35,008 nucleotides of DNA, from contig JAQVBP010000005.1 of the NCBI GenBank assembly GCA_028690255.1, positions 1 through 35,008 on the forward strand, written 5' to 3'. Made by a program: the position numbers and the translations under genes. The stretch's first letter is position 1. Each line of letters opens with the position of its first letter. The stretch is from Methanosarcinaceae archaeon (GTDB lineage: Archaea > Halobacteriota > Methanosarcinia > Methanosarcinales > Methanosarcinaceae). Below the pieces are notes generated by a model. The model was given only the letters and a program-made list of their open reading frames with translations. It had not been told where the DNA came from and did not search any database. This document shows, in pieces, positions 881-27,967 of the stretch.

Positions 881-1732
881 TTATTTAATCAATAAATTAA
901 ATCCTGAATTATTTGATTCCCATCTATTAATTGAAGCATAAAGATCTGTTCCAGAAAAGCATAAAAAATCAAAGGAAAGTCTCAAATTTCTTGATACAAT
1001 ATCATTATCTATAAATTTACTTGTATGGTTCCCAAATATTTCTTTTAGGCCAATTGTCAATATTTCTATCAAATCGTGTCCTTGACAAATTTGCCAAGGG
1101 TTGTGTGTGGATTTAATTGAACAAATCATAGATTTAATCTTTTTATAATCCAAAGTATAATTTTTTGGATTCTTTTCCAAATTATATAATAAACTACTAC
1201 AGTCAACCATCAGATTATTTTTGTCAGTAAACTGGCAAAAATCAAGTTTTTTGAAATCTATATACATATTATATTTTGAAGAGACCCATCTGACATACCC
1301 TATTTTTATACCACTCTGTATTAATATTTCACGTATTGGTTTGCCAAGTCTAATTAGTTTATTTTCATTTGCATATTCAGAGAGCATCTTTTCAAGTGCA
1401 TCTGATGAAAGAATCATTGTGTCAGTATCATGCGTATCTGTTATCAGCAAGTTTTTACTATATTTTTCCGGTTTGACTCCATCAACATGCCAAAAATCTG
1501 CGTCGACAATTGCTAACACGCCACAAACACCACTATGTTCAAGAATTAAAAGCGCATCGATAGCAGACGTTTTACATTTTGCATAGACCACATTACAAGT
1601 ATTGTCATCAATAAAACATTTGTAAACTCTTGAGTCTGTACTACCTTCAACTATTAGTATAGCTTGAGTAGAGTCCCTCCTACTCATCCTAGCTTTGTTG
1701 GCAATCCGGTTGGGAGTAATGTATCTTTTCAT
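881..1732 (-). CDS. DUF4435/TOPRIM-like putative nuclease (PARIS AriB-like / OLD-nuclease-like)
   Basis: 283-aa ORF. TOPRIM-type acidic motifs ILIVEGSTDSRVY (E29) and LAIVDADF (DxD), then ITDTHDTD. Starts 6 nt after the stop of the upstream ATPase gene. Very AT-rich. Confidence 0.6.
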   Translation of the reverse strand: MKRYITPNRIANKARMSRRDSTQAILIVEGSTDSRVYKCFIDDNTCNVVYAKCKTSAIDALLILEHSGVCGVLAIVDADFWHVDGVKPEKYSKNLLITDTHDTDTMILSSDALEKMLSEYANENKLIRLGKPIREILIQSGIKIGYVRWVSSKYNMYIDFKKLDFCQFTDKNNLMVDCSSLLYNLEKNPKNYTLDYKKIKSMICSIKSTHNPWQICQGHDLIEILTIGLKEIFGNHTSKFIDNDIVSRNLRLSFDFLCFSGTDLYASINRWESNNSGFNLLIK

Positions 1733-1738
1733 AGAAGT

Positions 1739-3067
1739 TCACCTAAATGAAGTATCTAACTTAACTGTTAAGTCCCACCGATCTTCTATGATATCTGGAG
1801 AATGAGTTGCTATAAGGACGTCAAGGTCTACAAGTTCAAGAACTTTCTGTAGATCACTTAAAAAGTCTTTTTGCCATCCTATGTGCAAAGAAATTTCTGG
1901 CTCATCAATTAAGATTAATGATTTGTGTTTTATTCTAAACAATAATTCATAATACAAAATTAGTTCATGTTGTTCCCCTGAAGATAGATTTGTTGGTAGA
2001 ATTTTTTTATTGTTTGATGTGGTAAAAATAAACCCCGTATTTTTATTTATGGATATACTTTTGTTGGCAAATCTACTGTTAATTATATTAACAAAAAGAT
2101 ATATTTTATCTCTAAGTTCATTGAATACATCCAATTTTTTCTTTACATCTTCAATATAAACAGAAAGAACGTGAGCATTTTCCTCGGTCAATTCTTGAAA
2201 CTCTCTGAAGTTAATTTCTTTCTCTTCATCAAGAAGGCCTGTTTTAATCAAATTAGTTCTTCTTTCTTCAAGGCTTGATAAGTATTCTTTAAGCTTGTTG
2301 ATATTTACATCATCTTTTGTCTTGGCTAATCGAATAGGAAACGTTCTATCTAAGGATTGAGAGAGACTTGCATATTCAGCAAGCTTTTTTTGAATAGCAT
2401 CTGATAATTCCCTTGAATAATCCATAACCGTATTCTCAATGGGTGCACCTTTCGAATATTCAAAATCCCTTTTCAAGCGCTTAAATGTAAACAACCTTTG
2501 AGTTGTTATAAAGTTTATATTGATCGATTTTTTTATATTAATAAACCACTCCTTCATGTTCTTTTCATCAAAATTTAGACCAAATTTCCACATAATTTCA
2601 TCAGATGAATATATTTCATTTTCGGGATCATAAATCCACTTATCATCATCTATTCTTATAAGTCCTGGAACTGTTCTAATTAATGAAAAAATATCCTTTC
2701 TATCATCAATTCTTTTTTTAATTATTACATTTTTATTTTTATTGTTGCTGTGTGATAGTATAAGTGAAATTTCATTTTTTGGAGTGTCATGTTGAAAACA
2801 ATTATTTTCACTTGAACTCTTCTTATTAACAATCTTTTTTAAACAAATAGTATTTCCATCATCAAAACTCACGGAAAATTCATCAAATGGAATGTCATAG
2901 AATATTTTATAATCTAAACAAAAAAGAGATTTTATCATTTCTAAAATAATGGTTTTTCCAACCCCATTTTGACCATGAATAATTGTTATATGATTCTCCA
3001 TGTTTAAATTTATTTCATGATCGTAAAGTTCGAAAAGATTTTTAATATTTACCTTCTTAACTCTCAT
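1739..3067 (-). CDS. ABC/SMC-type ATPase (AAA_15/AAA_21-like, PARIS AriA-like)
   Basis: 442 aa. N-terminal IKNLFELY..., Walker A GQNGVGKT, Q-loop FITTQR, ABC signature LSSGEQ, Walker B LILIDEPEISLH, H-loop IATHSP. Charged coiled-coil-like insert between the two lobes. Confidence 0.8.
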   Translation of the reverse strand: MRVKKVNIKNLFELYDHEINLNMENHITIIHGQNGVGKTIILEMIKSLFCLDYKIFYDIPFDEFSVSFDDGNTICLKKIVNKKSSSENNCFQHDTPKNEISLILSHSNNKNKNVIIKKRIDDRKDIFSLIRTVPGLIRIDDDKWIYDPENEIYSSDEIMWKFGLNFDEKNMKEWFINIKKSININFITTQRLFTFKRLKRDFEYSKGAPIENTVMDYSRELSDAIQKKLAEYASLSQSLDRTFPIRLAKTKDDVNINKLKEYLSSLEERRTNLIKTGLLDEEKEINFREFQELTEENAHVLSVYIEDVKKKLDVFNELRDKIYLFVNIINSRFANKSISINKNTGFIFTTSNNKKILPTNLSSGEQHELILYYELLFRIKHKSLILIDEPEISLHIGWQKDFLSDLQKVLELVDLDVLIATHSPDIIEDRWDLTVKLDTSFR

Positions 3068-3413
3068 AATATTACCTAATCCTATAGATTCTGAATATAT
3101 GATATAAGTCTTTTCTTATGTATAATTAATACCAGTAGTGGAAATTATCAATATGAGTACGAGTTACGCACTTGAGATGTAAAACCAAGCACATTAGAGC
3201 TTGTAGTAAATATTGTGCTTTAGACAGTTTGATGATTCATGCTACTGGTTTTCTGTTCAACTGCGTAAGTCCTATATGAGATAATAAATTATTTTTAATT
3301 ATAATCCTGTATCTCCCTGTCGTCTCCTTCGGAATTAGCAGAGAGGGTTTTAAAAAGTTCATAGTCCTCATCTGTGAGAGGTAATTCTTATTTTTTTCAT
3401 GATTTCACCTATA

Positions 3414-4727
3414 TTAACATTGATAAGATAAATTAGAAGCGGCTCTAAAGATCATATCAATCTTTTCTTTTTCTTTCGGCTTATCCTTCGGTTTTGGCTT
3501 CAAAGCATTCTTAACCTTCAAATAGGCCCCTGCAAAGAAGGCTTTAGAGTCTGATCTGTTAGAATGCCTGTAGCCGGTAACTTTGCTTATTGTGCCTTTC
3601 AGGAAATGTTTTTTAGGGCGGTTCTCGTCGGGCTTTTCTTTTTTCGGTTGAAGAGATTGGGAGCAAGACCAATTATGAAAACCGAAGGCCCAAAACATGT
3701 AACCGGATTCAGAGGTCATGCTTTTTTCTAAGTATTTTCGGAGATAATCATAAGGAGGGGTTCCGGCTGCATCCTCGGGACAACTGCCGGACCAGATCCA
3801 GGAAGAGCCCTGACGCCTGATAGTGTGAATGTCCAGGATCTCACCGCCTCCGTACCCCCTCCAGGCGTATTGTATCACACTTTTGGGCATGAGCCAGTTA
3901 ATCCCGAAAAAGGTTATATGGAAATGGACCCGCCCGTTTTTCTGAAACTCCCGGACGGCGATATATTCGGCGTGGTCCGGGAGATGATAACGTATGTAAT
4001 CAAGGAATTTTTCAAGGGCTTCATTTGTTTTATAATTGCATTCAGCTAAGGAACCGTACCCATAGGGCCGGGCTGTGAGGGTAAGTTCAGAGGCTACGCA
4101 GTGCCTCCGACTGGCTGCACCCCAGGCAAACCGGAAGCCCTGTATATTGGCGTCTTGTCGGTCCCGAGCCGTAAAACGGGTTTTATATGGCATTGTGTAG
4201 TTTTCAGCAAAAACCGGGCTACCTGTGGGAGAATAAGCCATATCAAGGCGTTCTGTTTTGGCCCGCTTGCAATAGTTGTTATATTCGGTTATTACCTCTT
4301 CTTCTACGTTATTGTGCTTGATCCAGTCGGAGCCCTCATAATGACCAAAAGAGTTTATACGGTTGAGCTTTAGAAGGGCTTTAAGCCGTTCAGGGCCTGC
4401 CCGCTTAAGGTGACTTAATGGTTCATGCTGCCGCCCGCTTGCGTGTTCGGTTTTTTCGGAGTTTTGCTTATCACAGATCAAGTCTAGGGAAGAACCCGAA
4501 AAAAAAGAAGATTCTTGCCGGGGATTTGCACGGACCCACAAAATAGAATCTACGTTTTCAAAAAAATATTTAACTTTTACTTTAGAATCACGGAGATAAC
4601 GGCGTACCTTCTGATAGCCATTTCTTCCGATCAAGCCTAACCTATCCGCTATTTGTTGCATAGTTAAGGGAACGGATAAAGTCATATCCCAAATCTTAGC
4701 TTTTTGCTCTGCTGTAAGCCCTGCCAT
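3414..4727 (-). CDS. Rolling-circle replication initiator (HUH superfamily, two-Tyr type) with N-terminal HTH-like region
   Basis: 437 aa. Motif 1 ELTLTARP (aa ~214), motif 2 RVHFHITFF (HUH, aa 268-270), motif 3 YLRKYLEK (YxxKYxxK, aa 328-335). Spacing is typical of RCR Reps. Lys-rich C-terminal tail. Confidence 0.75.
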   Translation of the reverse strand: MAGLTAEQKAKIWDMTLSVPLTMQQIADRLGLIGRNGYQKVRRYLRDSKVKVKYFFENVDSILWVRANPRQESSFFSGSSLDLICDKQNSEKTEHASGRQHEPLSHLKRAGPERLKALLKLNRINSFGHYEGSDWIKHNNVEEEVITEYNNYCKRAKTERLDMAYSPTGSPVFAENYTMPYKTRFTARDRQDANIQGFRFAWGAASRRHCVASELTLTARPYGYGSLAECNYKTNEALEKFLDYIRYHLPDHAEYIAVREFQKNGRVHFHITFFGINWLMPKSVIQYAWRGYGGGEILDIHTIRRQGSSWIWSGSCPEDAAGTPPYDYLRKYLEKSMTSESGYMFWAFGFHNWSCSQSLQPKKEKPDENRPKKHFLKGTISKVTGYRHSNRSDSKAFFAGAYLKVKNALKPKPKDKPKEKEKIDMIFRAASNLSYQC

Positions 4728-15408: not shown

Positions 15409-16233
15409 TTAAGGCCCGGACTCATCTGCAAGGACCCGGGCTCCGGAGACTTCTTCAGAGAGGTTCAGGTAATAAGCGAAAAGTTCTTTGCCCCATTCAA
15501 TCGCGCTTTCCTCAAAACTGATTAAGAACTTCTGATCGAGTTTACCTTTTTTGTCAAAAAGTAGCATGGACATGAAACGTTCGGTAACGGTAAAAGAAAG
15601 GATTCTTGGGGCCTGAGGGTAAACAAAGAGGCTTGAATTATCAGAATCCAGAAAAGTTTCATACACCTCCGAATAATCAGCCAGCATCCTTTCAAAAAAA
15701 ATATTTGAGATTACGAAAACGACCTTCCGATTTATTTTCAGATACTCGCTATAAACTGGAATCAGCGAAGGCTGAAAATAAGAAGAAAAATGCAGAACTT
15801 CCCTGGAGTTGAGCAGGTTTTCCTTAAACTCTGCATGAGGCTCGAAAATCCGACCCAAATCGGGTTCGATAACCCGATAGTCCCCGAGTTCTCCGAGCCT
15901 CCGGAGGAGAAATGCAGGAATTCCTTCCAGGGCCCGGTCTGTCCAGTAATCGTAGTTTTTTTCAAGCACCTGCAGAGTTCCCAGGAGAGGGACCATTTTT
16001 TCAGCCATAATCTTTCCAATACAGGAAAGGCTGTAGTATTTCCCTTTCTGGAGAACAAGGTGACTGTCTTTTAGTTTTTTAATCTGAGGGAGAATTGAAG
16101 TAGGAGGCGCAGCTAAGACATTCGCAATATCTCCAATATTTTTAGGCCCTTCCATAAGGAGGAAGATAACTTTCTTTCTTTTTTCAGAGCGAAGAAGCAG
16201 GTCTTCTAACGAAAGTTCTTGAGTAAGATCCAC
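15409..16233 (-). CDS. wHTH transcriptional regulator with DUF1724 (FilR1/Msr-type) C-terminal domain
   Basis: 274 aa. N-terminal RKKVIFLLMEGPKNIGDI...L.KLKDSHLV wHTH. Size and architecture match methanogen DUF1724 regulators. Confidence 0.65.
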   Translation of the reverse strand: MDLTQELSLEDLLLRSEKRKKVIFLLMEGPKNIGDIANVLAAPPTSILPQIKKLKDSHLVLQKGKYYSLSCIGKIMAEKMVPLLGTLQVLEKNYDYWTDRALEGIPAFLLRRLGELGDYRVIEPDLGRIFEPHAEFKENLLNSREVLHFSSYFQPSLIPVYSEYLKINRKVVFVISNIFFERMLADYSEVYETFLDSDNSSLFVYPQAPRILSFTVTERFMSMLLFDKKGKLDQKFLISFEESAIEWGKELFAYYLNLSEEVSGARVLADESGP

Positions 16234-16489
16234 GGCACCAACTTCAGAATAACTATAATGAATAACGGCTATAGATGGCGTTTTTATATTGTACCCATAA
16301 TCTCAATCCTATATACCCCATCATACCAGTACTGGTTATATACACAGACATATTTGAGCTAACACTATATAAAAATTTAGGAAATATTTCATAAAAATTA
16401 TAAGAAAACTGAGAAATATTCAGACCTTTTTTATCGAACCCATGCATAATAAAATATATTATATAGTTGATACCCCCGATTATTGAATA

Positions 16490-22725: not shown

Positions 22726-22926
22726 TTATTCAAAATTTAGATATGTAACAGGGAATCTTAATATACAATACTACATAATTGTTTTCAAAAGTTATGTACA
22801 GAAATATATAATTTGGAACTTATATTGATTGAATGGTATCAATAAAATTATGTGAATAACAAAAACAAAAAATAAAAACCGATACAGTACATTAACGTTA
22901 AATAATTAGAGAGAAAGAGGATATTT

Positions 22927-23721
22927 ATGGGATATGGAAATCAACAATATATTTATCCAGATTTAAAAGATCGAATCACATCTGTATTAATTAGCAGCAA
23001 AGAACCTTACGAAGGATACTGGGAGGAAAGTGAAAACTTCATACTAGATTTAATAAAAAAGCACATCAGCAAAGATATAATAAATAAAGAAAAATCTCTA
23101 TTAGACGCTGGTTGTGGGGAAGGAAGATTAACAATTTACTTTAGTGACTATTTTGAACGAATACTTGCAATAGACCCTGATAGGTCTCGACTAGATATTG
23201 CTATAAAAGAAACAAAACGACTTAAAATATCTAATAAAATTGACTTTGACAGTGTTCCTATAGAAGAGATCAATGAAGACGAAAAATTTGACGTAATACT
23301 TTGCAGTCATGTATTCCAACATGTTCAGACATCTCTTATCCCAAAGATTATAGAGAAATTAAGCATATTGATGAAAAAACCAGGATTATTATTTGTAACT
23401 ACATGTCATTCCACAAAAGGAGATGACTACTTCGTAAAAAATTATTTAGATGATTTTAATTTTGTAGAAGAAACTATTGATCAAGATTCTTTTAATTCTC
23501 TTGTTTTTGGAGTTAATCAATTACCTACGCACCTCTTTTCCCGTGGAAGCATTGAAGAGCTTCTTAAAAAGTCAGGGTTTAAAATTATTGATTATAAAGT
23601 TTTTCATATAATTGAAGAAGATTTTGGAACAAAACAAAATAGAGATATAACAGTTAATCAATCCCCCTCATTACAAAATAAATATGGGAGAGATGTATTT
23701 ATTGCCGCAAAAAAAGAGTGA
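22927..23721 (+). CDS. Class I SAM-dependent methyltransferase (not of DNA-MTase type)
   Basis: 264 aa. Motif I LLDAGCGEGRLT, post-I ILAIDPD, motif III/IV region DVILCSHVFQHV. No (D/N)PP(Y/F/W) or PCQ motif. Confidence 0.8.
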   Translation: MGYGNQQYIYPDLKDRITSVLISSKEPYEGYWEESENFILDLIKKHISKDIINKEKSLLDAGCGEGRLTIYFSDYFERILAIDPDRSRLDIAIKETKRLKISNKIDFDSVPIEEINEDEKFDVILCSHVFQHVQTSLIPKIIEKLSILMKKPGLLFVTTCHSTKGDDYFVKNYLDDFNFVEETIDQDSFNSLVFGVNQLPTHLFSRGSIEELLKKSGFKIIDYKVFHIIEEDFGTKQNRDITVNQSPSLQNKYGRDVFIAAKKE

Positions 23722-25345
23722 TGATAACAAGTCAAAATCAATCGAAATAAAAGAGATTCTTGGAGATGAAATAGAAGAAAATATTTATTTTTCAGATGTA
23801 TATATAGGATTTTTGTACACATTCAATATAGAAATTAAAAACATTTTATCAAAAAAAGAAATACAGTGTTTGCTGAAGGATAAAGGAATAAATGCTGAAT
23901 GGAATGAGAATGAAGAATATACAAAAGTTTTTGAAAGTGCAGAAGTTTTTTTTAAAGCCCCAGTGAGTGTTTTTACAAAACCACTTCGATTTAAAATCGG
24001 TTATTTATATTTTAAATGTCCACATATAAAGTACAAAGAAAATATAGAATGTATGTTTGATAAGCCTACAAAAATCGAATTATTTTTAACAATATACCCA
24101 AAACTTAAAAAAGCGATTTTACTTTTCAATATAAAACTAGAAAGTTGTGACTCGAATGACATTATTTTTCTCCGACATTGTTTCATGGGAGATAGACAAG
24201 AATTAATCCTTGACATTGAGCGATCTAATCCAAAAATATGCAAAACCTGTAACAAATTTAAAATCGATTGTGGCATAAGCAAACACTATTATAAGGAATT
24301 TAAAATTGACTGTGATATATATAATTACAGTGAAGAATTCAAAATTTATTTAGATATATGCGAACATTATAAAAAATATAAAAGATATTGTGAGAGATAT
24401 AAAACCTGTAAAAAAGTTAAAATTGATTGTTATATAAATTTTATTAAATCAGCATTTAGTGAAGTGAACGAAGAAAAATCAGATCAATCCGAAAAAAAAA
24501 TAGATAAAACTGATACGGAAAAATCGGAAGAAGAAAACACCTCATGCCCCATTGTTGTAAAAACAAACATAATAGAAATTCGGAACATATCCAACTTAAA
24601 TTATTTAAACGTAGATAATTGTGAAGATGATTTATTAAGCAGATATCCCAGACAGATATACAGTCTTTTGGTGGGAGACGAAGGATGGAAGTTTGTTCCA
24701 CGGAAACTGGCAATATCCAGAATAAAAAAAAGATGGGGGACCAGAGGATTTTTTACTGTATTCACATTCAATAACTCAGTTCTAGTTTTCAATTTTACAA
24801 AAACGAACCATTATAAAATATATGGATATACTCAAAAAGAATTAAGCAAAAGATTCAGACAAAAAACCGACGAATATTTTACCTTATGTTATGAAATTGC
24901 AGGCCTTGAACATGGTCCACTAACGAACCTTGAAATTGCATCGGTTATTCGATGTTCTCTTGATACTCTTTTTGAAAAACTTGATGATAAAAAATCAGAG
25001 TTGAATTATGAAAATGAAGATAATATAGTAAAAAAATTTCGTTCATGCATTTTCAATCATAAAAAAATCGAAAACATTAACCGCATGAAAAACGCAGTAA
25101 ACACAACTCTACTTGACCTAAATAAAATGAACAAAATATGGGAATTGGGGGAGCTACTTAACATGTTTAGTGAAAGTCTGTCAATATCGAAAGACATACT
25201 CAAGCTTGAGAAGAAATCGAATTTCATAGAAACCAAAATAATGACAGAGTATCAGAAAAATAACAATCTGATTTTAAGTGTATTAACATTACTTACAGTT
25301 ATCCTAACCTTTTTAGGGATTATTTGTGCAGTATATGAAATATAG
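23684..25345 (+). CDS. Hypothetical 553-aa protein. It has a Cys-containing FKIDC repeats, a coiled-coil-like C-terminal region and a terminal TM helix. Possible CorA-superfamily-like membrane effector.
   Basis: Long AT-rich ORF overlapping the methyltransferase gene by 29-38 nt. C-terminus NLILSVLTLLTVILTFLGIICAVYEI. Ends in TAG. Confidence 0.7.
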   Translation: MGEMYLLPQKKSDDNKSKSIEIKEILGDEIEENIYFSDVYIGFLYTFNIEIKNILSKKEIQCLLKDKGINAEWNENEEYTKVFESAEVFFKAPVSVFTKPLRFKIGYLYFKCPHIKYKENIECMFDKPTKIELFLTIYPKLKKAILLFNIKLESCDSNDIIFLRHCFMGDRQELILDIERSNPKICKTCNKFKIDCGISKHYYKEFKIDCDIYNYSEEFKIYLDICEHYKKYKRYCERYKTCKKVKIDCYINFIKSAFSEVNEEKSDQSEKKIDKTDTEKSEEENTSCPIVVKTNIIEIRNISNLNYLNVDNCEDDLLSRYPRQIYSLLVGDEGWKFVPRKLAISRIKKRWGTRGFFTVFTFNNSVLVFNFTKTNHYKIYGYTQKELSKRFRQKTDEYFTLCYEIAGLEHGPLTNLEIASVIRCSLDTLFEKLDDKKSELNYENEDNIVKKFRSCIFNHKKIENINRMKNAVNTTLLDLNKMNKIWELGELLNMFSESLSISKDILKLEKKSNFIETKIMTEYQKNNNLILSVLTLLTVILTFLGIICAVYEI

Positions 25346-25425
25346 TCACGCTTGCATTCGATGCGACAAAAATTACATGATGGTTTATATTTTGTTGTCG
25401 CATTACTCATGCTCGTGACTATATT
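25340..25425. repeat. Long imperfect inverted repeat / stem-loop beginning at the TAG codon
   Basis: Outer arms atatagtcacg / cgtgactatat. Inner arms atgcgacaaaa / ttttgt(t)gtcgcat. The unpaired middle forms an internal loop. Confidence 0.7.
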
Positions 25426-25453
25426 ATTACCAAATATAGCAATAATTCACTGA
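25343..25453 (+). other. In-frame UAG plus a 35-codon extension encoding a second hydrophobic helix (readthrough/Pyl candidate, or a recent nonsense mutation)
   Basis: Hand translation after TAG: SRLHSMRQKLHDGLYFVVALLMLVTILLPNIAIIH, then TGA at 25451-25453. Confidence 0.4.
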
Positions 25454-25535
25454 TTCCGTGACAATTTAATATTTATTATACACCAATTTCTTTGAAAAAG
25501 AAACATAATCCAGTAGACTTCTCTTCTCTGCCCTC

Positions 25536-25721
25536 AGTTGCCTTTAAATGCCGGTACTTCCTACTATCCCCTGATCGACATGCCACGGAAAAAGCAATTT
25601 GAAAAACCCCTGCATGGGGACAAGGAAAGTTTGAGATTCGCAAGCCTGAGCCAATTACCCGCTACAGGGCCCGGCGTCTGAAATGCCGGACCTGGCCGAT
25701 ATAAGCTACGGGACCGGGGGC
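25536..25721 (+). pseudogene. Degenerate duplicate of the 5' end of the methyltransferase gene at 26675
   Basis: Hand alignment to 26673-26860 gives about a dozen substitutions and two 1-nt deletions, which shift the frame. ATG at 25580 corresponds to GTG at 26717. Confidence 0.8.
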
Positions 25722-25915: not shown

Positions 25916-26140
25916 ATGGCTGAAACGACGACCATTCAGGTAAAACAGAGCACAAAAGAAGCTCTTGAGAGAATGAAAATCTTCTCTAGAGAAACTTACA
26001 ATGATGTCCTGGAAAGGCTGATGGAAGAGGTTCAGGAAATAAACGAAGAGACAAAAAAAGAGATCGAATGTGCCCGTCAGGAGATTGAAGAAGGCAAATA
26101 CGTTACCCACGAAGATCTAAAGAAAGAAATGGGATTCTGA
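25916..26140 (+). CDS. Antitoxin (ribbon-helix-helix-like) of a RelE/ParE-type module
   Basis: 74 aa, acidic. N-terminal TTIQVKQSTKEALERMK (beta strand plus helix). Stop overlaps the toxin start (TGATG). Confidence 0.7.
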   Translation: MAETTTIQVKQSTKEALERMKIFSRETYNDVLERLMEEVQEINEETKKEIECARQEIEEGKYVTHEDLKKEMGF

Positions 26141-26409
26141 TGCGTTTTCAAATTATCTGGTCCGAATCAGCAGCTTCCCAACTAAAAAAACTGGACCATT
26201 CCGTTGCAAAGCGCATTTATCGGAAAGTCTCCGAACTTGAGGAGAATCCTTACCGTTACGTGACAAAACTTGTAGGGGATTCCAGTTACAGGCTGCGAGT
26301 TGGAGATTATAGAGTGATTCTGGATATTCAGGGCAACCACCTATCGGTTCTTGTGCTTAAAATCGGGCACAGAAAAGACATTTATAAAACCATAGCAGAA
26401 AACCCCTGA
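26140..26409 (+). CDS. RelE/ParE-family type II toxin
   Basis: 89 aa. YRLRVGDYRVILDI...VLVLKIGHRKDIY is the hallmark C-terminal pattern of RelE/StbE toxins. Confidence 0.85.
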   Translation: MRFQIIWSESAASQLKKLDHSVAKRIYRKVSELEENPYRYVTKLVGDSSYRLRVGDYRVILDIQGNHLSVLVLKIGHRKDIYKTIAENP

Positions 26410-26674
26410 GTCTTTAGCTCAGTGGCCGTTCACTTCTCGACTTCTTTTTGTCTCTGTATTTTCTTTCCTTACCTGCATTCCGCATTTTTAGGCGCATAAA
26501 GGTCTTTAGCTATTGAATTATATGCTTAAAATATAAGCACATGGTTTTTTTGGACTGGCTTTTAAAATCAGCATCAATTGAGATCATATGTTAGTAATAA
26601 TGCCTATATATGCGCTTAAAATTTGGAAACTAAAATTATAAACAAGAAAAGTTTTCTTTCCCCTGACCAGGTAG

Positions 26675-27757
26675 TTGCCTTTAAATGCCGGTACTCCCTA
26701 CTATTCCCTGATCGATGTGCCAAGGAAAAAGCAATTTGAAAAACCCCTGCATGGGGACAAGGAAAGTTTGAGATTCGCAACGCCCGAGCCAATTGCCCGC
26801 TACAGGGCCCAGCGCCTGAAATGCCGGACTCTGGCCGATATAAGCTGCGGAATCGGGGGCCAGACCATCTTTTTTGCCCAGCAGTGCGAGTCCGTCTACG
26901 CTGTGGAAATCGACCCGAAGAAAATCGAATACGCAAAACAGAACTGTGAGATGTACGGGCTCGAGAACGTGACTTTCATCTGCGGAGATGCCCTCGACCC
27001 GGAAGTCATAGCGCAGATCCCTAAAGTCGATATAGTGTTTTCGGACCCGGCCCGGCCGGCCGAAGAGGACGAGAGGCAGGTCTCAAGTATCGAGCCCGGA
27101 ATCCCGAACGTGCTTGAAGCCTATGCGGAAAAGACCCGGAACTTCGCCTTTGAGGCTCCGCCTCAGATGCCCCCCGAAAGGATTCCCTTTGACTGCGAAA
27201 AAGAGTACATCTCCCTCGACGGGCAGCTCAACCGCCTGACCCTCTACTTCGGAGCCCTCAGGCAGTTTGAAAGGCTGGCAGTCGCCCTCCCTGCGGGAGA
27301 GGGGCTTGTCGCAAAGGAAAACCCGATTTCCCAGGTCCGGGAAACCGATAAAATGAAACTCTATGCCTACGAACCCGAGCCCTCGGTCGTGGCAGCGGAA
27401 CTTTTGCCTGAGCTCATCGACTCCATGATCGACATCGTAGGGCCCCTTGTCGGAGGGTTTGAACTCTTCCGTGTAGATAAAAAAAGGATCCTGCTTACGA
27501 CAGATGCCCTTGCCAAACAGTCCATGGTCAAGAACAACTACCTCGTACTCGGGACCAGGCCTTTCGAGCCGAAGGAAATAAACGAATTTTTGAAGAACAG
27601 AAACGTCGGAAGCGTCGTCCTCAGAGCCGGGGTGAAACCCGAAGCCTACTGGGACGTCAGAAATGAAATCGAAGAAGGCCTGGAAGGAAAAAAGACCGTG
27701 CACCTCTTTGTGAAAGGGGATACCGCAATTCTCTGTGAAGTGCTTTTCAAGGATTGA
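26675..27757 (+). CDS. Class I SAM-dependent methyltransferase (RNA-methylase/Tgs-like N-domain plus a C-terminal domain of unknown function)
   Basis: Motif I LADISCGIGGQTIFFA, motif IV-like VFSDPARP. The track start is TTG 26675. In-frame GTG 26717 is the likelier start because the duplicated copy has ATG there. Confidence 0.8.
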   Translation: MPLNAGTPYYSLIDVPRKKQFEKPLHGDKESLRFATPEPIARYRAQRLKCRTLADISCGIGGQTIFFAQQCESVYAVEIDPKKIEYAKQNCEMYGLENVTFICGDALDPEVIAQIPKVDIVFSDPARPAEEDERQVSSIEPGIPNVLEAYAEKTRNFAFEAPPQMPPERIPFDCEKEYISLDGQLNRLTLYFGALRQFERLAVALPAGEGLVAKENPISQVRETDKMKLYAYEPEPSVVAAELLPELIDSMIDIVGPLVGGFELFRVDKKRILLTTDALAKQSMVKNNYLVLGTRPFEPKEINEFLKNRNVGSVVLRAGVKPEAYWDVRNEIEEGLEGKKTVHLFVKGDTAILCEVLFKD

Positions 27758-27876
27758 AGATTGAAGTTCAGAAACTAAATTTCAGGAAAAAATAAAAGAA
27801 ATGCTGCCCGGGTTTTCCGGGTAGCTTACTGTTTTTGTGCCTTATCAGCTGATGACCAACCAATCAGCCAAATACT

Positions 27877-27928
27877 AAACGAATTAGCTAAACGAATTAG
27901 CTAAACGAATTAGCTAAACGAATTGGCT
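27877..27928. repeat. 13-bp tandem repeat aaacgaattagct x4 (last copy has 1 mismatch) in a convergent intergenic spacer
   Basis: Read directly. Confidence 0.9.
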
Positions 27929-27967
27929 GGCCAGCTAATCGATTTTCAAATTAGCTTTTTTATCAGC

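Follow-up and report, generated by a model that had tools for sequence, protein, structure and literature searches.

Introduction

CorA, ZntB and Mrs2 (PF01544) have a cytoplasmic alpha/beta domain at the N-terminus together with long helices, and the last of these extends to form the first membrane helix; CorA itself has a GMN motif, two membrane helices and a basic C-terminus. A CorA-related effector is also known from the type III-B CRISPR system of Bacteroides fragilis, where a divergent soluble N-terminal domain is joined to a CorA-related membrane region and the protein is activated by SAM-AMP, a signal derived from S-adenosylmethionine (SAM) (PMC10600005). Here we describe a gene for a remotely CorA-like protein in a stretch of 35,008 nucleotides (hereafter the window) from a Methanosarcinaceae archaeon (assembly GCA_028690255.1, contig JAQVBP010000005.1, positions 1 to 35,008, forward strand). 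The gene (23684..25345, + strand) ends in TAG, its reading frame remains open for 35 codons beyond this stop, and the TAG lies within a strong stem-loop. On balance, and with moderate confidence, we read the TAG as the genuine terminus of a complete CorA-like protein with the single helix typical of its family, encoded on a foreign, methyltransferase-linked island, the stem-loop as a feature of the 3′ untranslated region (3′-UTR) of this copy, and pyrrolysine read-through, if there is any, as the source of a by-product.

In archaea with pyl genes, UAG is both a stop and a sense codon (PMC2933860), and the lineage of the present host normally carries pylTSBCD (PMC9499178). An amber codon in a reporter was read through as pyrrolysine at about 20–30% in Methanosarcina acetivorans, and pylB and similar genes end in TAG, for example in M. 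mazei and M. acetivorans (PMC2933860). Competition between release factor and pyrrolysyl-tRNA at UAG is expected in such hosts (PMC2933860, PMC9499178). The pyrrolysine insertion sequence (PYLIS), a stem-loop associated with the UAG of mtmB, is dispensable and poorly conserved (PMC2933860). A sequence-only reading of the window had proposed that the TAG interrupts a CorA-like tail of two membrane helices joined by a short loop, and had likened the stem-loop to PYLIS.

Results

The TAG-terminated gene and its position in the window

The open reading frame (ORF) of 553 amino acids (aa) is present as the sequence-only reading had described it, with a TAG at 25343–25345 (+) followed by an open in-frame run to a TGA at 25451–25453, and is supported by ORF calling, by the family profile described below and by an AlphaFold2 (AF2) model. 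The C-terminus reads ...FLGIICAVYEI-TAG (NLILSVLTLLTVILTFLGIICAVYEI). Reading past the TAG in the same frame gives SRLHSMRQKLHDGLYFVVALLMLVTILLPNIAIIH; this extension of 35 codons and the TGA (25346..25453, +) consists of a basic loop, SRLHSMRQKLHDG, followed by a hydrophobic stretch, LYFVVALLMLVTILLPNIAII, and the read-through product would be 589 aa long. An alternative ORF of 30 aa, MRQKLHDG followed by a membrane helix, occupies 25361..25453 (+) and was recognised from the ORF list and the geometry of the stem. Its ATG lies 15 nt 3′ of the UAG and pairs with CAT 25401–25403 within the inner stem of the stem-loop. On reading the sequence, no Shine–Dalgarno (SD)-like sequence was seen 5′ of ATG 25361 or of TTG 25352.

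Stop codon usage was assessed on a greedy choice of non-overlapping ORFs of at least 100 aa (n = 25), which end in 13 TAA, 11 TGA and a single TAG, that of the target gene. The plausible small genes of the window also end in TAA or TGA, and the only other TAG terminates a doubtful ORF of 64 aa (16253..16447), so the TAG is indeed unique among the credible stops, as had been noted. We found no credible case of a further gene with an in-frame TAG interruption within the window; the in-frame continuation of ORF 1739..3067 beyond its TGA is simply the next gene in that frame. TAG ends about 3–5% of genes in Methanosarcina, and at this assumed rate the probability of at least one TAG in 25 genes is 0.53–0.72, which would make one such stop unremarkable. 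The sole TAG among the long ORFs sits on the one clearly foreign module of the window.

The protein family

In the target protein, a cytoplasmic alpha/beta domain and a Cys-rich insertion are combined with a helical stalk and a single membrane helix at the C-terminus. Its AF2 model (predicted local distance difference test [pLDDT] 83, predicted template-modelling score [pTM] 0.83) contains one unbroken helix over residues 501–552, and the membrane helix (residues 527–553, ...LILSVLTLLTVILTFLGIICAVYEI; 25262..25342, +) was recognised in both the hydropathy scan and the model. Neither the 553-aa nor the 589-aa form matched anything in Pfam, NCBIfam, PADLOC or the PDB sequences, and subfamily-profile searches for a direct family assignment found nothing. 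A word-indexed search gave P0002, P0004 and, from Methanosarcina siciliae, P0003 as relatives, and a full profile search identified 196 representatives at E-values up to 1e-3 (clusters at 50% identity, a lower bound). These are typically 400–450 aa long, and the conserved core of the family corresponds to residues about 300–553 of the window protein. Alignments were made of 150 representatives, and a set of 67 members was used for model scans. A search with the 67-sequence alignment returned the same four proteins only, a scan of genome-collection contigs gave no relatives, and a scan of the metagenome collection added only a near-copy of a further member, P0013. With at least 196 clusters at 50% identity and without a Pfam, NCBIfam or PADLOC model of its own, the family is large and unannotated.

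Members share the core YGLLxGDEGW[RK]FVP...R...W.[ST]R.F and a Y-x4-N-x5-LT anchor at the entry of the membrane helix. The anchor is present in 140 of the 150 aligned representatives, with Y conserved in 111, N in 112, L in 104 and T in 95 of them. Membership of the window protein follows from the presence of the core motif, of the anchor (Y523-x4-N528-x5-L534-T535; 25250..25288, +) and of the C-terminal membrane helix; the protein carries D332 and R354 in addition to Y523, N528, L534 and T535, and it matches the subfamily profile at 6e-236, the alignment behind this profile including the window protein itself. The Cys-rich insertion (about residues 185–250; 24242..24437, +), which coincides with the DNA repeat family D2, contains three K(F/V)KIDC or CxxC-like repeats. 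All homologues are gapped there and the model has a pLDDT of about 50; the insertion may be a metal-binding module specific to this copy.

The length of the C-terminal tail was measured from the LT of the anchor. Its median is 20.5 residues, and 85 of 140 representatives end 10–24 residues after the anchor, where their single helix ends. The window protein ends 18 residues after it, in the modal bin. P0013 and its variant L011 stop at the identical column with TAA, and their in-frame extensions are two codons long (DK and GK) and not hydrophobic. The M. siciliae protein P0003 stops three residues earlier with TGA, and P0015, another member, has a TAA stop. Because about 60% of the family, including near relatives, ends at this point, the TAG does not interrupt the tail usual in the family, contrary to what had been proposed; the sequence-only reading had itself named homologues ending at the same point with TAA or TGA as evidence against an interruption, and this is largely what the alignment gave. 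The two-helix plan of CorA with a basic C-terminus is not found in either form of the protein, as the annotated product has one helix and the read-through form would have a basic loop and no basic tail.

P0002 is the nearest relative of the window protein in 182 of 200 bootstraps. AF2 draws its tail as one continuous helix of 67 residues with falling confidence, and the alternative given by MAFFT is a 9-residue insertion within the first helix. The contig of P0002 (L002) also encodes P0004 (1–628, −), a paralogue of 471 aa without the C-terminal membrane helix, which is either a soluble variant or a decaying copy.

Relationship to CorA

Two CorA-like models of PADLOC, PDLC01043 and PDLC01174, matched 16 and 13 of the 67 family members (best E-value 8e-6). 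The matches span profile positions about 315–410 of 446–457, that is, the coiled-coil stalk and the first helix, and the matched members thus stop where the first helix of the model ends; the models themselves run about 40–50 positions further. The window protein did not match these models at E-values up to 1. Pfam CorA (PF01544) matched one of the 67 members (4.4e-4), and neither the 553-aa nor the 589-aa form of the window protein matched it at E-values up to 1. In structural comparisons with Foldseek, the top 31 PDB matches of the window AF2 model are all CorA or ZntB, and the top 25 of the P0002 model are all CorA, ZntB or Mrs2. These matches are weak, with E-values of 8e-3 or weaker, probabilities up to 0.84 and a TM-score of about 0.2. 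A GMN-type motif (G[MVI]N) at the end of helix 1 was found in none of the 150 representatives, and the window protein has ...AVYEI-UAG at this place.

Taken together, this weak but consistent evidence suggests that the family is CorA-like in architecture, with a real but remote CorA-like character at the C-terminus, and that it is neither a member of PF01544 nor, in all likelihood, a Mg2+ channel. Channel function for Mg2+ is not expected since GMN is missing throughout, most members have no second helix and the matches are weak. Of the CorA-like tail suggested from the sequence, the remote CorA character therefore stands, as seen in the PADLOC and Foldseek matches, while a PF01544 match is missing for the window protein and the GMN motif is missing from every member.

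The stem-loop at the UAG

Folding, arm pairing and an inverted-repeat scan identified a nested inverted repeat at 25339..25425 (+), which forms a stem-loop of 86–87 nt. The segment 25340–25425 folds at −30.5 kcal/mol, compared with −15.1 ± 3.0 for shuffled sequences (z = −5.1), and none of 200 shuffles equalled it. Only 0.05% of the low-GC 86-nt windows of the contig fold equally well, and in the entire 35-kb window just five inverted repeats, this hairpin included, reach 12 bp within a span of 120 nt. The outer arms (25339–25350 and 25414–25425) are paired at 12 of 12 positions and include the TAG, which pairs with CUA at 25419–25421; the inner arms (25361–25372 and 25392–25403) are paired at 11 of 12. 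The strong stem-loop of about 86 nt noticed at the UAG is thus real, with the UAG lying inside its outer stem.

Its suggested likeness to PYLIS was not upheld. Covariance-model searches against PYLIS (RF01982) and the rest of Rfam, at E-values up to 10, gave only chance matches to microRNA-precursor hairpins, and no Rfam family reached the gathering threshold anywhere in the window; identity with PYLIS or another known RNA family was rejected on these grounds. Three homologues were also tested, and none has the hairpin at its 3′ end (z = −1.4, −0.5 and −0.3), so that it was rejected as a conserved feature or recoding signal of the gene family. There is no second copy within the window, and no exact copies of the arms were found in the genome and metagenome collections. 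The hairpin lies 30–110 nt from the right boundary of the low-GC island, and a Logan assembly of the target gene breaks inside it.

Properties of the in-frame extension

At the base composition of the island, an open extension of 35 codons has by itself a probability of about 5%. The codon log-likelihood ratio of the extension is −0.09, as compared to 6.6 ± 3.5 for in-frame 35-codon windows of the gene (1st percentile) and 3.3 for the region of the first helix, and codon usage is ambiguous. The loop of the extension contains three K/R and two His, and no K/R follows the second hydrophobic segment. Among the two-helix members of the family, 23 of 26 have K/R after helix 2, with a mean net charge of +4.8 there and +0.1 in the loop, so that the charge pattern of the extension is the reverse of that in 23 of 26 genuine two-helix proteins. 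Alignment against shuffled sequences showed no significant similarity between the extension and the P0002 tail (P about 0.08–0.10), scores against most two-helix tails were at the level of composition only, and no homologue of the extension was detected. Conserved coding sequence 3′ of the UAG was thus not found in the homologues, of which only P0002 continues, with a sequence that has no significant similarity to the extension.

In the M. siciliae homologue (L001 7861–7911, CP009508), the TGA is followed by 16 in-frame codons with a hydrophobic run, ISIILILLTFCRCLIT, a hint at repeated truncation of hydrophobic tails in this subfamily. A downstream hydrophobic ORF comparable to that of 30 aa was not found beside any homologue examined.

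The low-GC island, its neighbours and the host

The target gene lies on a low-GC island (22850..25480, boundaries approximate) with 28–30% GC, compared to about 45–55% in the flanks; the window as a whole has 45% GC, mostly 44–58% outside its low-GC islands. The island has two long ORFs only, the target gene and, upstream, a gene for a class I SAM-dependent methyltransferase of 264 aa (22927..23721, +, stop TGA), whose last 38 nt are shared with the beginning of the target gene. The GC fractions of the two module genes are 0.299 and 0.282. The methyltransferase was assigned by Pfam matches to Methyltransf_23 (1.8e-18), Methyltransf_31, Methyltransf_25, Methyltransf_11 and TehB. The same overlapping arrangement is found at P0002, P0003, P0013 and P0015, and the two-gene module is low in GC in every other host examined. 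Pairing with the methyltransferase holds for P0001, P0002, P0003, P0013 and P0015, but not across the whole family; one clade of the family invariably has an overlapping SAM methyltransferase of small-molecule type as its partner, on low-GC islands. Within the island of the target gene, neither a transposase nor an integrase gene was recognised.

The neighbours of the target gene in the window are the class I methyltransferase, a phospholipase-B-like protein, an amidohydrolase and a ParE pair, and no cas10, NrN or SAM-AMP lyase gene is found near it. Homologues have the methyltransferase, an alpha-amylase or a radical SAM enzyme as neighbours. In three contigs of Methanosarcinales type (L001, L002 and L005), the methyltransferase and CorA-like pair is preceded by a GH13 alpha-amylase gene; in L006, a B12-binding radical SAM gene takes this place. 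Neither gene precedes the window copy.

To the right of the island, a direct repeat of about 186 nt with 90–95% identity (25536–25721 and 26673–26860) duplicates the 5′ end of the methyltransferase gene at 26675..27757 and brackets about 950 nt with a toxin–antitoxin cassette. The repeat resembles a scar left by an insertion or duplication event in a hotspot for integration. The cassette consists of genes for a DUF7557 protein of 74 aa (25916–26140, +; 4e-05) and, through an ATGA overlap, a ParE-family toxin of 89 aa (26140–26409, +; 5.8e-13), which probably form a type II toxin–antitoxin pair adjoining the low-GC island. Further downstream, the convergent intergenic region between the gene at 26675..27757 and the AlaRS gene (27800–27930) contains a GC-rich hairpin, GCUGCCCGGGUUUUCCGGGUAGC, a T-run and four tandem 13-nt repeats, GCTAAACGAATTA.

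A second low-GC island (881–4727, −; 27–32% GC) is located at the left end of the contig. It encodes an AAA_15/AAA_21 ATPase of 442 aa, an unannotated partner of 283 aa that follows in-frame directly after the TGA of the ATPase gene, and a 437-aa protein with a REP_ORF2-G2P replication domain, which suggests an integrated plasmid or virus with a defence-type ATPase. The AT-rich start of the contig (150–280) carries dense inverted and direct copies of TAAAATGTTATTGTTTTA. These could serve as a set of binding sites or mark an origin-like region belonging to the neighbouring element that encodes Rep.

Placement of the host in the Methanosarcinaceae near Methanosarcina is supported by the housekeeping AlaRS, which is 82% identical to that of M. 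mazei, and by the 90%-identity cluster mates, which carry the label Methanosarcinaceae archaeon. A regulator of the FilR1 type, associated with methanogenesis, is encoded at 15409–16233 (−; FilR1_middle, 1.4e-31), consistent with a methanogen host. The 35-kb window contains no tRNA or pyl gene, and pyrrolysine use by the host is presumed from its placement next to Methanosarcina and from the literature (PMC9499178).

Discussion

Probable termination at the TAG and a proposed function of the module

We consider it fairly probable that the TAG is the normal end of the protein, and propose the following course of events. Most members of the family would have kept only the first of the two membrane helices of CorA and would end at the outer face of the membrane. 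The target gene and the overlapping methyltransferase gene would form a two-gene module, probably translationally coupled, that was acquired horizontally on the low-GC island beside the ParE toxin–antitoxin pair, and a TAG stop in a host that otherwise avoids TAG is most simply explained by the foreign origin of the gene. By analogy with CorA and the SAM-AMP-gated CRISPR CorA, the protein may oligomerise through its stalk and membrane helices, and the oligomer may, as directed by the cytoplasmic domain, alter signalling or the permeability of the membrane; the methyltransferase could supply, modify or remove the ligand or partner that exerts this control. The stem-loop may act in 3′-end formation or in the stability of the transcript. 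Where pyrrolysyl-tRNA is present, a minority of ribosomes would insert pyrrolysine at the UAG and continue to the TGA; a 589-aa by-product formed in this way is plausible from known biology, and no special signal would be needed for it.

Alternative explanations

Several results weigh against simple termination. About a quarter of the family has genuine helix1–loop–helix2 tails of 47–70 residues, a range into which a read-through tail of 54 residues would fall, and P0002, alone among the close homologues, runs on past the TAG column and has another hydrophobic segment there, as well as a basic tail. The strength of the hairpin also greatly exceeds that expected by chance. Sequences simulated with an island-derived Markov model had a helix-like 17-mer in an open frame of 30 or more codons after a stop in 2.5e-4 of cases, and with equivalent hairpin pairing imposed (frame of at least 27 codons), a helix-like frame was still rare (3.8e-4). 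Among short open non-coding frames in low-GC DNA, such hydrophobicity is found in only about 2.4%. Since a helix-grade open frame after a stop is so rare by chance, the extension probably is, or once was, coding. That the hydrophobic frame is a by-product of the T-rich hairpin arm was dropped as the main explanation on the result for simulated hairpins. Three readings that do not exclude one another give the extension such a role, namely a relic second helix, selected read-through and a separate peptide of 30 aa. As a relic, it would descend from a two-helix ancestor shared with P0002, a recent nonsense change would have made the TAG, and the second helix would be a decaying, untranslated remnant; possibly, a template-switch event perfected the palindrome and made the TAG in the 12-bp stem. 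The truncated protein would probably still be functional, since most of the family has one helix. The nearest-relative position of P0002 together with its longer tail, the occurrence of both architectures in the family, the hydrophobic run after the TGA of M. siciliae, a chance of about 3e-4 for the helix-like open frame and the location of the TAG in a perfect 12-bp arm all fit this history. We nevertheless regard it as rather unlikely, as the extension has its positive charges in the loop and not in a basic tail, as 23 of 26 two-helix members do, shares no significant similarity with the P0002 tail, which AF2 in any case gives as a continuous helix and not as a hairpin, and begins at a stop column identical to that of the one-helix relative P0013. 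A coding remnant would also leave the 86-nt hairpin unexplained. Selected recoding, in which pyrrolysine is inserted at the UAG or the hairpin assists read-through, giving a one-helix isoform of 553 aa and a two-helix isoform of 589 aa, is very unlikely in view of the homologues, which stop here with TAA or TGA and have no hairpin. Moreover, the hairpin has no match to PYLIS, itself a dispensable element, the charge topology is reversed, codon usage is ambiguous, and a recently acquired foreign low-GC gene may have gained its TAG outside any setting of pyrrolysine use. For recoding speak the proximity of the host to Methanosarcina, where UAG is ambiguous (PMC2933860), the length of the read-through tail, which is within the two-helix range, the improbability of the helix-like frame by chance, and the strong hairpin: with UAG in the A site, the outer stem would be melted and the inner stem would stand 9–15 nt downstream, at the mRNA entrance. 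The ratio of the isoforms could then be set by pyrrolysine supply, for example during growth on methylamines.

A separate membrane peptide of 30 aa from ATG 25361 (or 33 aa from TTG 25352) would account for the hairpin and the hydrophobic frame together. Starts exist at both positions, and the pairing of the ATG with CAT 25401–25403 would lock the start in the inner stem until it is freed by a ribosome finishing at the UAG, in a termination–reinitiation coupling. The basic N-terminus followed by a helix also appears to fit the positive-inside rule far better than the topology of the read-through product. Such a peptide is very improbable all the same, given that neither start has an SD-like sequence, the codon score is not gene-like, and neither a homologue nor a parallel hydrophobic ORF beside the homologues examined was found; to our knowledge, hairpin-gated small toxin-like ORFs are not established in Methanosarcinales. 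A switch that draws on these readings, in which termination at the UAG in the stem-loop gives the one-helix protein and either pyrrolysine insertion or read-through adds the second helix or reinitiation gives the 30-aa peptide, is quite unlikely in our view; if it did operate, the pyrrolysine status of the host or translation of the upstream gene would adjust the membrane topology or the activity of an effector that is mobile and linked to a methyltransferase. The palindrome could finally be a DNA-level element at the right end of the island, such as an insertion scar, a repetitive extragenic palindromic (REP)-like or miniature inverted-repeat transposable element (MITE)-like element or a recombination site, which provides the stop codon and a T-rich arm by coincidence. 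Its location 30–110 nt from the island edge, within a rearranged hotspot where a gene start is duplicated and the ParE cassette lies, its absence from the homologues and the break of the Logan assembly within it are in line with such an element. This explanation is highly improbable, however, as the palindrome is present in a single copy in the window and without exact-arm copies in the collections, the island has no recognised transposase or integrase gene, and an imposed hairpin does not make a helix-like frame likely.

For a foreign gene whose TAG coincides with the normal end of its family, in a methanogen that probably uses pyrrolysine, termination as favoured here requires no special mechanism. 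The unnamed family then looks like CorA stripped to one membrane helix. Since gating by a SAM-derived signal is established for one CorA-type effector, the methyltransferase and CorA-like pair is a candidate conflict or defence module. As read-through would add a hydrophobic helix, the locus also provides a compact natural test of ambiguous UAG decoding on horizontally acquired genes.

Comparison with known systems

With the PYLIS of mtmB, the window hairpin shares its size, roughly 85–100 nt in the former, and its position at or just after a UAG. PYLIS starts after the UAG and belongs to a methylamine methyltransferase gene, whereas the window hairpin starts 3–4 nt before the UAG, in a gene that is not of this kind. 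The target gene resembles the UAG-terminated genes of pyrrolysine-decoding Methanosarcinaceae in its TAG stop, its downstream back-up TGA and its Methanosarcina-like host. In those genes the back-up stop is close, while that of the target gene is 35 codons away, and the target differs further in being a foreign gene whose extension would add a hydrophobic helix.

The protein appears to have the plan of CorA, ZntB and Mrs2, with a cytoplasmic alpha/beta domain at the N-terminus and a last long helix that continues into the first membrane helix, and the N...LT motif at the membrane-helix entry is common to CorA and the family. The basic tail of the two-helix family members resembles that of CorA. 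In contrast to CorA with its GMN and two helices, the family has no GMN (0/150), and most members, including the window product, have no second helix. The CRISPR-associated CorA proteins are encoded together with a signal-generating system, type III cas10 with NrN or a SAM-AMP lyase, none of which is found near the window gene, and their partner is a nuclease or lyase instead of a class I methyltransferase. The family nevertheless shares with them a divergent soluble N-terminal part fused to a CorA-like C-terminal membrane region, a location in mobile or defence-type islands, and a link to SAM chemistry, which is here provided by the neighbouring SAM methyltransferase.

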